IMG/VR virus record: IMGVR_UViG_2713896783_000037 | Direction: 5' to 3' (one strand) | DNA: 4,987 bases | Source: a virus | Lineage: Duplodnaviria > Heunggongvirae > Uroviricota > Caudoviricetes | Shown here: piece by piece, positions 1 to 4,637 of the stretch | Layout of the letters: every line of letters begins with the position of its first letter | How positions within the stretch are numbered: position 1 is the stretch's first letter | Notes under the pieces: generated by a model | The model's input: only the letters and a program-made list of their open reading frames with translations | The model's database searches: none | Told to the model about the DNA's origin: nothing | Position numbers and translations under genes: made by a program

Positions 1-45
1 ATAAAACCGGGTGATGCAAAAGTAGCCGTTTGATTCACAAGGCCA

Positions 46-74
46 TTGACGCATCGCCCGGTTAGTTTTAACCT
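46..74 (+). promoter_or_regulatory. Candidate sigma70 promoter for the tRNA gene (TTGACG-17 bp-TAACCT)
   Basis: TTGACG at 46-51 and TAACCT at 69-74 with a 17-bp spacer, about 40 bp upstream of the mature tRNA 5' end. The -10 hexamer is weak; this is a pattern match only. Confidence 0.25.
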
Positions 75-114
75 TGTCCACCGTGATTCACGTTCGTGAA
101 CATGTCCTTTCAGG

Positions 115-190
115 GCCGATATAGCTCAGTTGGTAGAGCAGCGCATTCGTAATGCGAAGGTCGTAGGTTCGACTCCTATTATCGGCACCA
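115..190 (+). tRNA. thrW: tRNA-Thr, anticodon CGU
   Basis: 76-nt cloverleaf: acceptor stem GCCGATA/TATCGGC, D-loop AGCTCAGTTGGTAGAGC, anticodon loop containing CGT, T-arm GGTTCGACTCC, encoded 3' CCA. Matches my recollection of enterobacterial thrW. Confidence 0.9.
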
Positions 191-204
191 TTTAAATCAA
201 TAAG

Positions 205-1179
205 TTACACATCATTAGTACCTTCCTTATTTTTTGACTGGGACAAATTTGGGACCGATGGGTTCAGGATCGAGTCTATTTGCCGTGCGTGTTCGGTAAG
301 GTGATTAGGTGCAAGGTGAGCATATCGACGAACCATTTCGATAGACTCCCAGCCTCCCATTTCCTGTAACACTGACAACGGGACTCCGGCTTGAACCAGC
401 CAACTTGCCCAGGTGTGTCTCAAGTCGTGAAATCTGAAATCATCAATACCAGCCCGTCTCAGCGCCGCTTTCCAGGCTGTGTTTGCGTCATACCGCATCT
501 TCCTTACTGTTGGCGCTTTCGTTCCGTCTGGTTTGGTACAGCTTTCCTTGTACACAAATACCCAACGGTGATGATTACCGATTTGTTTTTTCAATACGCG
601 ACATGCAGTATCATTCAGCGCAACGCCAATTGCGCGGTTTGATTTACTCTCTTCCGGGTTTATCCATGCCACCCGGCGCTGCATATCTATTTGTTGCCAT
701 TCAAGGTTGATGATGTTCGAGCGTCTTAAGCCTGTTGCCAGTGCAAATTCAACAACAGACTTTAATGGCTCCGGACATTCATCAATCAGCCTTTGTGCTT
801 CATGGGGCTCCAGCCAGCGGAGCCGTTTATTCTTTGGTTGAGGCACTTTAATAATTGGTGCCTTATCGAGCATTTTCCATTCACGCTCTGCGGCTCTTAG
901 CAGGGCCTTTATAAATGAAAGATGCGTAGCCTTCGTTGCAACGGACGCTGGTTTTGGCGTGTATTCTGGAACAGGTTTCCCTTTTTTTCTGCATGCTTCT
1001 GCCCTGAGTTTCCAGTTTTCCTCATGACGCCGGTTCGTCATTTTCTGCATTGCTGAATAAATTTTTGATTCAGTAATGTCTCTTAGTTGCATTCCTGCGA
1101 AATGTTGAAGCCAGAATCCGATCTGCTTTCCATTGAGCCTGTTTCTCTGCGCGACGTTCGCGGCGGCGTGTTTGTGCAT
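205..1179 (-). CDS. int: Tyrosine recombinase (phage integrase), 5'-truncated; catalytic domain intact
   Basis: Catalytic signature residues are present: R in ATGLRRSN, H-x-x-R in [11 protein letters not shown] in VRRYAHL. The stop is 15 bp from the tRNA 3' end. Integrase-derived sequence begins only at about 1122; the first 19 codons of the ORF ([19 protein letters not shown]) are lambda N coding DNA read in the +1 frame, and an in-frame stop lies at 1201-1203. The N-terminal (arm-binding) region of a full-length integrase of this kind therefore appears to be missing. Confidence 0.8.
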
Positions 1180-1183
1180 CCAT
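1124..1183 (-). pseudogene. N: Antiterminator N, 5' fragment (first 20 codons only)
   Basis: ATG at 1183-1181 is preceded by AGGAGAATCCAG and encodes [20 protein letters not shown], the arginine-rich boxB-binding N-terminus of lambda N. After codon 20 the sequence switches to integrase DNA and the N frame runs on as [17 protein letters not shown] to a stop at 1070. Confidence 0.8.
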
Positions 1184-1340
1184 CTGGATTCTCCTGTTAG
1201 TTAGCTTTGGTTGTGTGTGGGAGTCGTAGTCCTGAACGAAAACACCCCGCAATGGCACATTGGCTGCTAATCCGGATTCGCACTTCCGGCCAATGCTTCG
1301 TTTCGTATCACACACACCAAAGCCTTCTGCTTTGAATGCT

Positions 1341-1371
1341 GCCCTTCTTCAGGGCTTAATTTTTAAGAGCA
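1341..1371 (-). promoter_or_regulatory. nutL (boxA plus boxB hairpin)
   Basis: On the minus strand: TGCTCTTAA (boxA-like) followed by GCCCTGAAGAAGGGC (boxB stem-loop, identical to lambda nutL boxB as I recall it). Lies in the pL leader upstream of the N start. Confidence 0.7.
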
Positions 1372-1404
1372 TCACCTTCATGGTGGTTAGTGCGTCCTGC
1401 TGAT

Positions 1405-1473
1405 GTGCTTAGTATCACCGCTAGTGGTATTTGTGTCAACACCGCCAGAGATAATTTATCACCGCAGATGGTT
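1405..1473 (-). promoter_or_regulatory. pL promoter with operators OL1, OL2, OL3
   Basis: Minus-strand -35 TTGACA (plus 1434-1439) and -10 GATACT (plus 1411-1416). Three 17-bp cI/Cro operator sites: OL1 1413-1429 TATCACCGCTAGTGGTA, OL2 1437-1453 CAACACCGCCAGAGATA, OL3 1457-1473 TATCACCGCAGATGGTT. Confidence 0.85.
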
Positions 1474-1554
1474 ATCTGTATGTTTTTTATATAGATTTAT
1501 TTTTTGCAGGGTTGTGTGGCTTGGGAGGTGATCGAGAGATCAGAATTGCGTTGT

Positions 1555-1944
1555 TTAGTGAGTTGCACCTATTAATTTTAAAATAAATACAATTGGTGTT
1601 TTTCGAGTTTTTCTTAACTCTTCATGCAGCTCCGTTCTCAGAATATATGATTTTTCGAGTTTGAAATTCTTGCGACCAGGCGTCTTATTGCCAGGCTCAG
1701 GAAGTGGAAGGCGTGTTTGAATGTCGAGTGGTGGACAGTCATAGAAGTAAATTCTATAAAGCTCAAGCGGTTCCCTACGTTCTTGTGATTGATGTTTTCC
1801 ATTAAGATGGGAAAGAACCATTGACCATATTACTTTCATTATGCATTGCGCAGTCAGTTCATGCTCGGCGAAGTGTTTACGATGCGTAGCATGAACACGC
1901 TGCATGAAAAAACCCGCATCAATTAAAATTGCTGCTTTCTTCAT
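1555..1944 (-). CDS. Hypothetical protein (129 aa, basic) in the rexA/rexB position of the immunity region
   Basis: The only ORF in the six-frame track between OL and cI. ATG at 1944-1942 with a weak GGGA Shine-Dalgarno. AT-rich relative to flanking lambda-like DNA. No family recognised; the N-terminal MKKAAILIDAGFF resembles the first strand-Asp motif of PIN/NYN-type folds, but this is a weak impression only. The last ~16 codons lie in DNA homologous to lambda's non-coding region right of OL. Confidence 0.5.
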   Translation of the reverse strand: MKKAAILIDAGFFMQRVHATHRKHFAEHELTAQCIMKVIWSMVLSHLNGKHQSQERREPLELYRIYFYDCPPLDIQTRLPLPEPGNKTPGRKNFKLEKSYILRTELHEELRKTRKTPIVFILKLIGATH

Positions 1945-1953
1945 AAGAGTCCC

Positions 1954-2014
1954 AAAAAAATAGCCCAGAGCCGTTATGCAGATATTAACAATTGTCTGCG
2001 AACGGGGCTGGGCT
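1954..2014 (-). terminator. Intrinsic terminator immediately downstream of cI
   Basis: On the minus strand: AGCCCAGCCCCGTT...AACGGCTCTGGGCT imperfect GC-rich stem (7+5 bp with a 2-nt internal mismatch, inner GCAGA/TCTGC pairing) followed by ATTTTTTT. Begins 57 nt after the cI stop and ends 9 nt before the ORF129 ATG. Confidence 0.6.
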
Positions 2015-2024
2015 TGGTTTAATT

Positions 2025-2054
2025 AATCTATGCCAAGTTGACTGTGCCGTCAAC
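2025..2054 (-). promoter_or_regulatory. Candidate promoter (TTGACG-17-TAGATT) overlapped by the inverted repeat GTTGAC-N6-GTCAAC
   Basis: Minus-strand -35 TTGACG (plus 2048-2053) and -10 TAGATT (plus 2025-2030) with a 17-bp spacer. A perfect 6-bp inverted repeat at plus 2037-2054 overlaps the -35. Pattern only. Confidence 0.25.
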
Positions 2055-2071
2055 ATAAAACTTACTTCCTA

Positions 2072-2788
<717 letters not shown>

Positions 2789-2796
2789 TTAAATCT

Positions 2797-2860
2797 ATCA
2801 CCGCAAGGGATAAATATCTAACACCGCGCGTGTTGACTACTTTACCTCTGGCGGTGATAA
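2797..2860. promoter_or_regulatory. Right operator OR3-OR2-OR1 with divergent promoters PRM (leftward) and PR (rightward)
   Basis: OR3 2797-2813 TATCACCGCAAGGGATA, OR2 2819-2835 TAACACCGCGCGTGTTG, OR1 2843-2859 TACCTCTGGCGGTGATA. PR -35 TTGACT 2832-2837 and -10 GATAAT 2855-2860. cro Shine-Dalgarno TAAGGAGG at 2873-2880. Confidence 0.92.
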
Positions 2861-2876
2861 TGGTTGCATGTACTAA

Positions 2877-3086
<210 letters not shown>

Positions 3087-3093
3087 ATAACCC

Positions 3094-3125
3094 CGCTCTT
3101 ACACATTCCAGCCCTGAAAAAGGGC
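3094..3125 (+). promoter_or_regulatory. nutR (boxA CGCTCTTACACATTCCA plus boxB GCCCTGAAAAAGGGC), followed by the tR1 region
   Basis: boxA at 3094-3110, boxB hairpin at 3111-3125. The following 3126-3200 contains the palindromes ACACC-TAT-GGTGT and GTATGCA-TTTATT-TGCATAC, typical of the lambda tR1 rho-dependent terminator region. Confidence 0.8.
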
Positions 3126-3204
3126 ATCCAATTAAACCACACCTATGGTGTATGCATTTATTTGCATACATTCAATCAATTGTTATCTAAGGAAATACTT
3201 ACAT

Positions 3205-3498
3205 ATGGTTCGTGCAAACAAACGCAACGAGGCTCTACGAATCGAGAGTGCGTTGCTTAACAAAATCGCAATGCTTGGAACTGAGAAGACAGCGGAAGCT
3301 GTGGGAGTTGATAAGTCGCAGATCAGCAGGTGGAAGAGAGACTGGATTCCAAAGTTCTCAATGCTGCTTGCTGTTCTTGAATGGGGGGTCGTTGACGACG
3401 ACATGGCTCGATTGGCGCGACAAGTTGCTGCGATTCTCACCAATAAAAAACGCCCGGCGGCAACCGAGCGTTCTGAACAAATCCAGATGGAGTTCTGA
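3205..3498 (+). CDS. cII: Transcriptional activator CII
   Basis: 97-aa product MVRANKRNEALRIESALLNK...ERSEQIQMEF, identical to lambda CII as I recall it. True start is the ATG at 3205 (RBS TAAGGAAATACTTACAT), not the upstream ATG at 3145 used by the ORF track. Confidence 0.95.
   Translation: MVRANKRNEALRIESALLNKIAMLGTEKTAEAVGVDKSQISRWKRDWIPKFSMLLAVLEWGVVDDDMARLARQVAAILTNKKRPAATERSEQIQMEF
3214..3227 (-). promoter_or_regulatory. CII-binding site of PRE (TTGC-N6-TTGC)
   Basis: Plus GCAAACAAACGCAA is the reverse complement of TTGCGTTTGTTTGC, the direct-repeat CII recognition motif flanking the -35 of the leftward establishment promoter, embedded in the first codons of cII as in lambda. Confidence 0.6.
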
Positions 3499-3520
3499 GG
3501 TCATTACTGGATCTATCAAC
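3442..3520 (-). ncRNA. oop: oop antisense RNA (overlaps the cII 3' end)
   Basis: Minus strand reads GTTGATAGATCCAGTAATGACCTCAGAACTCCATCTGGATTTGTTCAGAACGCTCGGTTGCCGCCGGGCGTTTTTTATT. This matches my recollection of lambda oop, including the terminal GC hairpin and U-run. A pO-like promoter (CATAAT -10) lies just upstream within the start of O. Confidence 0.7.
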
Positions 3521-3530
3521 AGGAGTCATT

Positions 3531-4329
3531 ATGACAAATACAGCAAAAATACTCAACTTCGGCAGAGGTAACTTTGCCGGACAGGAGCGTAATGTGGCAG
3601 ATCTCGATGATGGTTACGCCAGACTATCAAATATGCTGCTTGAGGCTTATTCGGGCGCAGATCTGACCAAGCGACAGTTTAAAGTGCTGCTTGCCATTCT
3701 GCGTAAAACCTATGGNNNNNNNNNNNNNNNNNNNNNNNNNNNNNNNNNNNNNNNNNNNNNNNNNNATGAATATTATCAAGCAGCAAGGCGGCATGTTTGG
3801 ACCAAATAAAAACATCTCAGAATGGTGTATCCCTCAAAACGAGGGAAAATCCCCTAAAACGAGGGATAAAACATCCCTCAAATTGGGGGATTGCTATCCC
3901 TCAAATTGGGGGATTGCTATCCCTCAAAACAGGGGGACACAAAAGACACTATTACAAAAGAAAAAAGAAANNNNNNNNNNNNNNNNNNNNNNNNNNNNNN
4001 NNNNNNNNNNNNNNNNNNNNGCAGAGTGGATGTTTGACATGGTGAAGACCATCGCGCCATCAGCCAGAAAACCGAATTTTGCTGGGTGGGCTAACGATAT
4101 CCGCCTGATGCGTGAACGTGACGGACGTAACCACCGCGATATGTGTGTGCTTTTCCGCTGGGCCTGCCAGGACAACTTCTGGTCCGGTAACGTGCTGAGT
4201 CCGGCCAAACTCCGCGACAAGTGGACCCAGCTCGAAATCAACCGTAACAAGCAACAGGCAGGCNTGANAGCCAGCAAACCAAAACTCGACCTGACAAACA
4301 CNGACTGGATTTACGGGGTGGATNTATGA
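3531..4329 (+). CDS. O: Replication initiator O (lambda-type), interrupted by assembly gaps
   Basis: N-terminus MTNTAKILNFGRGNFAGQERNVADLDDGYARLSNMLLEAYSGADLTKRQFKVLLAILRKTYG. Middle segment MNIIKQQGGMFGPNKNISEWCIPQNEGKSPKTRDKTSLKLGDCYPS. C-terminal domain AEWMFDMVKTIAPSARKPNFAGWANDIRLMRERDGRNHRDMCVLFRWACQDNFWSGNVLSPAKLRDKW...DWIYGVD, with the ATGA stop/start overlap onto the P start. Two 50-N runs (3716-3765, 3971-4020), isolated Ns at 4264, 4268, 4302 and 4324, and a 23-bp duplication make frame continuity undeterminable. Confidence 0.85.
3716..3765. other. Assembly gap (50 N) inside gene O
   Basis: Run of 50 N. The corresponding lambda segment is about 99 bp by my recollection, so the gap length looks arbitrary. 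Confidence 0.95.
3829..3937 (+). repeat. Origin iterons (O-binding sites) inside gene O; five copies, followed by an A-rich tract
   Basis: Five inverted-repeat iterons of the form ATCCCTCAAA...GGGGGAT, starting at 3829, 3849, 3873, 3896 and 3919 (spacing 20-24 bp), then CAAAAGACACTATTACAAAAGAAAAAAGAAA running into the gap. Lambda has four as I recall; the third here is present twice. Confidence 0.85.
3874..3919 (+). repeat. Perfect 23-bp tandem duplication (TCCCTCAAATTGGGGGATTGCTA x2) within the origin iterons
   Basis: 3874-3896 and 3897-3919 are identical. 23 is not a multiple of 3, so the O reading frame is shifted after this point relative to lambda (KLGDCYPS then NWGIAIPQNRGTQKTLLQKKKE instead of KQGDTKDTITKEKRK). 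Confidence 0.8.
3971..4020. other. Assembly gap (50 N) inside gene O, just after the origin A-rich tract
   Basis: Run of 50 N. The corresponding lambda segment is about 124 bp by my recollection, so the gap length looks arbitrary. Confidence 0.95.
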
Positions 4330-4637
4330 AAAACATCGCCGCACAGATGGTTAACTTTGACCGTGAGCAGATGCGTCGGATCGCCAACATCGATAACCAG
4401 GACATGACGATATCGGTCTGGGTCTTTCCTGATACTGATATTTCAGATGTATCGCGTGAGTTAATTGCGGCAATTAAACAGGGGTATCTAACAGTAAAAG
4501 CCGCCGGGGTATGGGCGGGGGGCATTGAAACACCTTCGGTGGAAACTCCATCGGAAGGCTCTAAATTTTTTGGTTTTGATATGGATAACGAATTCATCAG
4601 TGGTTTTGATGTAGGGGCATGGGGAGTATTACTCTGA
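4326..4637 (+). CDS. Chimeric ORF: first 21 codons of replication protein P fused to 82 codons of unrelated coding sequence
   Basis: [21 protein letters not shown] matches the lambda P N-terminus (nucleotide identity through 4389). From 4390 the sequence is unrelated ([45 protein letters not shown]...[11 protein letters not shown]). The frame stays open for 82 codons and ends in a TGATG stop/start overlap with the next ORF, suggesting the 3' end of a real gene. Confidence 0.55.

Follow-up and report, generated by a model that had tools for sequence, protein, structure and literature searches.

Phage integrases of the lambda and P22 type are heterobivalent, and their arm-type binding domain is needed for recombination of attP with attB and of attL with attR. 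The thrW tRNA gene is the target of the P22 integrase and of those of SfI, SfII, SfIV and SfV, all of which have one attP core in common there; SfIV has an annotated excisionase gene immediately upstream of int. The antiterminator N of lambda binds boxB RNA through an arginine-rich motif (residues 1-22), NusA through about residues 34-47, and RNA polymerase through about residues 73-107. Escherichia coli O157:H7 arose from a lineage that includes O55:H7 CB9615, where thrW holds a lambdoid prophage much more complete than the O157:H7 element described below. It opens with full-length int and, where xis would lie, a helix-turn-helix gene; then follow an ea22-like pseudogene, exo, bet, gam, kil, cIII, ral, sieB and N. 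Phage phi458 (OP434518), from avian pathogenic E. coli, is a spontaneously induced, functional prophage (PMC9701743). The closest described system is prophage Sp1 of O157:H7 Sakai, for which Asadulghani et al. 2009 (PMC2669165, Table 1) scored the repressor and Cro as conserved, integration and replication as defective, and excision and the remaining functions as absent; general recombination was likewise scored absent (PMC2669165).

The stretch of DNA analysed here (the window, 4,987 nucleotides) is the left end of this prophage, known as CP-933H in EDL933, integrated in thrW of E. coli O157:H7. Positions 1-1560 were 100% identical to Sakai, EDL933 and numerous other O157:H7 chromosomes, while positions 1-3715 were 99.97% identical to Sakai; sequence identity and the thrW position together place the window in Sp1/CP-933H of the O157:H7 lineage. 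The Sakai reference labels the locus 'prophage Sp1, lambda-like phage' (10,586 bp), and the name CP-933H also occurs in the record of phage 2B8. In Sakai, the gene order of Sp1 begins with intD (ECs_0271, a pseudogene), ECs_0272 ('phage early gene regulator') and a hypothetical gene, continues through cI, cro, cII, O (pseudogene) and P (pseudogene), and ends with tail-fibre genes, pinE, a regulator and an IS remnant. Two 50-N runs in the window, at 3716-3765 and 3971-4020, take the place of 100 and 124 nt in Sakai, which means that window coordinates beyond 3715 are shifted and non-collinear with the reference; single Ns occur at 4264, 4268, 4302 and 4324.

The first bases of the window are proA-thrW intergenic DNA. 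They are followed by thrW itself, the integration target, on the plus strand (115-190; tRNA-Thr, anticodon CGT), which was identified by ARAGORN and is annotated as thrW in Sakai. The attL core (145-191) was found by repeat search as a perfect 47-bp direct repeat of the thrW 3' end, and homology to phage attP starts at 145. Both core repeats are present, the copies being 10,586 bp apart with attR to the right. In Sakai, the Sp1 attR lies at L001 22731-22782 and the P4-like prophage Sp2 begins right there, at L001 22760; thrW in O157:H7 holds two elements in tandem, Sp1 and then Sp2.

Next to attL, on the minus strand, is a truncated integrase gene (int', 205-1123), comprising codons 83-387 and the stop codon of a tyrosine integrase of the SfIV/SfV/phi458 type, as judged by nucleotide and amino acid identity, Pfam PF00589 and mapped catalytic residues. 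Across positions 145-1123, identity to the attP-int region of SfIV and phi458 was 99.4% (973/979 nt), the range among the SfI, SfII, SfIV and SfV integrases was 98.5-99.4%, and identity to P22 int was 78%. In the ORF list, int' forms the greater part of a composite reading frame of 324 codons (205-1179, minus strand), which PGAP calls 'site-specific integrase' and which is the pseudogene intD in the curated Sakai record. An earlier reading made from the sequence alone (the sequence-only reading) had described the apparent integrase N-terminus as N read in the +1 frame. Translation from the ATG at 1179, situated 4 nt past the ATG of N, agreed: codons 1-19 consist of N DNA read in +1, and ORF residues 20-324 correspond to residues 83-387 of the 387-aa SfIV integrase (304/306 identical).

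The same reading had described the integrase as short at its N-terminus yet possessing its catalytic residues, and had proposed an alignment to full-length, thrW-targeting integrases to measure the loss. This alignment showed that the N-terminal 82 residues (21%) are missing and that all six catalytic residues are kept (R152, K179, H251, R254, W277 and Y286 in ORF numbering; R215, K242, H314, R317, W340 and Y349 in full-length numbering), aligned with R212, K235, H308, R311, H333 and Y342 of lambda Int. PF00589 matched int' with 161 bits, its profile being covered from position 1 to 171 of 172, identifying a tyrosine recombinase catalytic domain. An N-terminal arm-type DNA-binding domain was not recognized in int', where residues 1-82 have been exchanged for 19 unrelated ones, and BLASTP against lambda Int and phmmer against PDB aligned the catalytic domain alone, with no N-terminal domain match. 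Integrase PHROG profiles matched int' from profile position 81 onward only, Xer-type profiles aligned from residue ~140 only, and residues 3-44 of the full-length integrase gave a weak DUF6538 match. From these profile starting points, the weak DUF6538 match and the known domain layout of lambda Int, we infer the domain boundary; the 82 lost residues probably include the arm-binding domain. There is an annotation pitfall here, in that pipelines call the 324-codon ORF a 'site-specific integrase' in most O157:H7 genomes, when it is really a pseudogene, truncated at its 5' end and supplied with its start codon and first 19 codons by another gene in another frame.

That other gene is a lambda-type N. 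Minus-strand sequence of the lambda type runs from pL, via nutL and the N ribosome-binding site, into N. The description of this start module as lambda-like was borne out by 92% identity to lambda and 97% to ev099 over 1123-1597. The pL promoter (1411-1439, minus strand; TTGACA-17 nt-GATACT) was identified by a promoter scan (10/12 matches) and by alignment to lambda pL/OL, the OL operators overlapping it. Alignment to lambda nutL placed nutL at 1341-1371 on the minus strand, with boxA TGCTCTTAA at 1371-1363 and boxB GCCCTGAAGAAGGGC at 1355-1341. The boxB is that of lambda, while boxA differs from lambda CGCTCTTAA at the first base; since ev099 also has TGCTCTTAA, the variant would appear to be a feature of the lineage and not of decay. 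The nutR site survives too, directly downstream of cro, where boxA CGCTCTTAC and boxB GCCCTGAAAAAGGGC were read directly from the sequence.

The N stub (N', 1124-1183, minus strand) consists of codons 1-20, is identical to lambda and ev099, and matches Pfam N36 over positions 1-19 only. Its ATG is at 1183-1181, one base away from the position that the sequence-only reading had implied, and codon 20 (GCA) is at 1126-1124. In its own frame, N' belongs to a fusion ORF of 37 aa (1070-1183, minus strand), seen on translation and lying inside Sakai ECs_0272 'phage early gene regulator'; this joins 20 N residues to 17 out-of-frame int residues and stops at 1072-1070. Residues 1-20 are those of lambda N, so that most of the predicted arginine-rich, boxB-binding motif is kept and residues 21-22 are lost. 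The regions that bind NusA and RNA polymerase are absent, the ORF leaving N after codon 20 and ending 17 codons further on; full-length N proteins in O55:H7 and phi458 have 107-110 aa. Because these contact regions (within N residues 21-107) are gone, the stub is predicted to be unable to antiterminate at the remaining nutL and nutR sites. The minus strand showed no terminator-like site from pL down to the stop codon of int, and for this reason induced pL transcripts may read directly into int'.

The point at which N gives way to int was mapped by aligning the window base by base with lambda, ev099, SfIV and phi458, in three-way alignments to both types of parental sequence. Read on the minus strand, the window shows no difference from lambda, ev099 and phi458 from before the start of N through ...ATGGAAAGCAG, after which it diverges; the match amounts to 61 nt from the ATG, or 20 codons plus 1 nt. 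The deletion joint is therefore at 1123/1124, as expected from the proposal that N is broken after codon 20 and joined out of frame to a 5'-truncated int. The limit of lambda-like sequence, given previously as about 1123, is exact, in that 1123 is the last base matching lambda in alignment with lambda, ev099 and phi458. C1123 is the sole base common to both parental sequences (a 1-bp microhomology), and other E. coli genomes match one side of the joint only, splitting at 1123-1129. Since microhomology at the joint is at most 1 bp, it arose by illegitimate recombination; homologous or site-specific recombination would not give such a signature.

Two other features near the joint were considered and rejected. 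A GCTTT pentamer near both breakpoints might have provided a longer microhomology, but crossover there would give GATCCGGCTTTCC, where the observed sequence is GATCTGCTTTCC. The GATC to which attention had been drawn is indeed present, at 1120-1123; however, it lies wholly in int-derived DNA, occurs already in the intact int of SfIV and phi458, and was inherited instead of being created by the joint. There are 17 GATC sites in the 4,987-nt window.

The content of the lost interval can be read from relatives that carry it between the same two genes, and these confirmed the claim that everything between N and int is absent, including xis and the recombination and kil genes. The place beside int that is taken by excisionase in SfIV, and by the helix-turn-helix gene in O55:H7, is occupied in the window by the N' stub. 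In phi458, the breakpoints correspond to positions 979 and 8409, and the 7,429 bp between them, absent from Sp1, hold exo, bet, gam and kil along with three ORFs, an ea10-like ORF, the 5' end of int and codons 21-110 of N. Like Sp1, phi458 has this int allele (99.4%), a closely similar N 5' end (97.7%) and O-P region (98.2%), and homologous attP flanks, the attR-proximal flank of Sp1 being homologous to the attP flank of phi458; unlike Sp1, it is complete and functional, has the 7,429-bp interval, and has another immunity region. The CB9615 prophage encodes an N of 107 aa, with a 5' end and leader 96% identical to Sp1, beside a different int allele (76% nucleotide identity where the 3' part of int and the thrW flank align).

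The scar is thus very probably the result of a single internal deletion, by illegitimate recombination, in the integrated mosaic lambdoid prophage Sp1. Its ancestor would have been a lambda-like phage whose cI immunity was that of lambda, with O/P replication and a b region like that of ev099; its integration module would have been of the SfV/phi458 type, directed at thrW and belonging to the P22 family. Deletion from int codon 82 to N codon 21 would have taken away the N-terminal (arm-binding) region of the integrase, xis, the exo-bet-gam-kil-cIII block and N residues 21-107. The length of about 7.4 kb is given in phi458 coordinates, being measured on relatives since the search for the exact parent before deletion yielded no genome; the combination of lambda cI immunity with the Sp1 int allele was not encountered, phi458 and O55:H7 having other immunity and ev099 having lambda int. 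The tail-fibre segment from window position 4390 resembles myophage genes, for which reason the ancestor was mosaic or exchanged modules at some point.

A different route to the same joint is the fusion of two tandem thrW prophages, one SfV-like (contributing int) and the other lambda-like (contributing N to P), by a deletion that took most of the first and the left arm of the second. Tandem occupation is certainly a property of this site, given that Sp2 abuts Sp1, and the int allele is that of the SfV-family Shigella phages; furthermore, strain 7784 (of O157 background) and many other E. coli have an SfV/CPS-53-like prophage with this int at thrW, and the tail-fibre region of Sp1 is of myophage type. 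Several observations speak against this route. In phi458, the same int (99.4%) is joined with a lambda-type pL operon, comprising exo, bet, gam, kil and N, in one functional genome, and the O55:H7 thrW prophage has the same architecture. One lambda-like genome, ev099, is collinear with Sp1 both from N to P and, just inside attR, in the b region with its AraC-type regulator and IS remnant, and the flank near attR is homologous to the phi458 attP flank. The 10,586-bp element is bounded by one attL/attR pair only, with no internal att copy left. Fusion of tandem prophages would require a bigger and more contrived deletion, and we regard it as improbable beside a deletion within one prophage.

Whichever way the joint was formed, the deletion removed the DNA that had separated int from pL, and this raises the question of whether the scar is inert. 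It is conceivable, though we think it improbable, that pL drives SOS-dependent, N-independent expression of an arm-less integrase, a 37-aa peptide with the N motif, or both. Such products might hinder incoming phages that integrate at thrW or depend on lambda N, which would provide a function for the unexplained induction of Sp1 early genes by mitomycin C. The fuller proposal, in which the scar has been co-opted so that inactivation of cI during the SOS response leads pL to express the arm-less integrase, the boxB-binding peptide N(1-20), or both, against incoming phages, is slightly less probable again. In its favor, int' is open for 324 codons with its catalytic residues all kept; its ATG is 4 nt past that of N, behind the N ribosome-binding site; the minus strand has no terminator-like site from pL to the int stop codon; and N residues 1-20 span nearly the whole arginine-rich motif. 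The residual early genes of Sp1 are indeed induced by mitomycin C, with a significance that was unknown to the authors (PMC2669165). However, there is no signal of selection, as the 6/979 nt that distinguish int' from phage alleles equally fit a recent origin; the rest of Sp1 is decaying, with O frameshifted and both P and the NYN gene truncated; and pL is kept off by cI during normal growth. The mitomycin C response is itself consistent with an intact, cleavable cI of the lambda type.

Very little needs to be said for the notion that the joint is an assembly chimera, or that the N-like 60 nt form the genuine start of an integrase gene, since the abrupt change in homology at one base is the only point in its favor and it is refuted by an identical joint in 215 independently assembled complete genomes and four IMG/VR contigs, and by integrase and N homologues that extend 82 and 87 residues further, respectively. 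Full-length int homologues do not align over 1124-1179, and no related phage uses the N-like sequence as the start of its integrase. The 215 genomes were found among 5,426 complete E. coli genomes by full coverage of a 301-nt probe centered on the joint; all other probe matches covered one half only and broke at window positions 1123-1129. Those carriers listed with a named serotype were all O157, making the joint a clean marker for genomes that carry Sp1. An exact 33-mer across the joint occurred in four IMG/VR contigs and had no matches in GTDB species-representative genomes. Strain 7784 (NZ_CP018247.1), a UK cattle isolate from an O157 long-read sequencing study, lacks the Sp1 joint and has at thrW a largely complete SfV/CPS-53-like prophage (L004 19142-40157) with a full-length copy of the same int allele; evidently, the site has been re-occupied or exchanged within the lineage.

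The deletion within N and int is one of several degenerative changes in Sp1. In the position of rexAB is an ORF of 129 aa (1555-1944, minus strand), which represents the N-terminal part of a 285-aa NYN-domain protein of ev099 and 2B8 (phrog_5783). Pfam and NCBIfam returned nothing for this ORF, which was identified through PHROGs and phage BLAST; its 5' part matches many Stx2a phages at the DNA level. The NYN gene has a breakpoint near 1597, where Sp1 is without 576 bp relative to ev099. In one IMG/VR contig (L009), which shares the N::int joint, the NYN-gene deletion is only 156 bp, as against 576 bp (both measured on ev099), and this suggests that the N::int deletion preceded later, stepwise decay.

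Within the ori iterons of gene O, there is a 23-bp tandem duplication at 3873-3918 (ATCCCTCAAATTGGGGGATTGCT, two copies). It brings the number of iteron-like repeats to five, against four in lambda, and shifts the O frame; Sakai O is a pseudogene. A second deletion joint is found at 4389/4390, where P is broken after about 21 codons and continues in frame into the terminal part of a DUF2612-type structural gene. The next tail-fibre gene is 97.7% identical to those of the myophages vB_EcoM-606R2, -611R5 and -683R1. At this second joint, all of the nin, Q, lysis and head genes have been lost, together with most of the tail genes.

With xis gone and the arm-binding region of the integrase apparently gone also, Sp1 is predicted to be unable to excise by itself. 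The earlier statement that the element is locked in the chromosome holds in this restricted sense, and is in keeping with published results, where excision was scored absent and Sp1 gave no circularization, replication or packaging (PMC2669165, Tables 1 and 2). Because attL and attR are intact, a phage of the phi458 or SfV type may still bring about excision in trans by supplying integrase and excisionase. Otherwise, the central proposal of the sequence-only reading, a deletion from within N to within int, is supported by the alignments, by intact relatives, by the pseudogene call in Sakai and by the published phenotype (PMC2669165).

When set beside known systems, the window combines two familiar halves. 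With respect to the Sf and P22 integrases, the Sp1 copy lacks codons 1-82 and an adjoining xis. With respect to lambda and ev099, the pL promoter, OL operators and nutL boxB are conserved, as is N up to codon 20, and cI to P are 98-99% identical; the differences are that N stops at codon 20 and the pL operon downstream of N is gone and, from lambda, that a truncated NYN-domain gene of the ev099 kind is present in place of rexAB. Sp1 of Sakai and CP-933H of EDL933 have the same thrW site, joint and att repeats as the window and nothing of substance is different; the window comes from another isolate or assembly, with one substitution at 1793 (T for C). The element is a previously sequenced, annotated and experimentally characterized prophage, being neither a new kind nor a new member of a kind. 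The Sakai intD pseudogene and the defects of Sp1 were known beforehand, and prophage decay is ordinary; what is added here is the base-level joint, the 82 lost residues, the size of the deletion on phi458 and the more complete relatives. Beyond good annotation this has little significance, and Sp1 is a textbook case of a grounded prophage that keeps its repressor.
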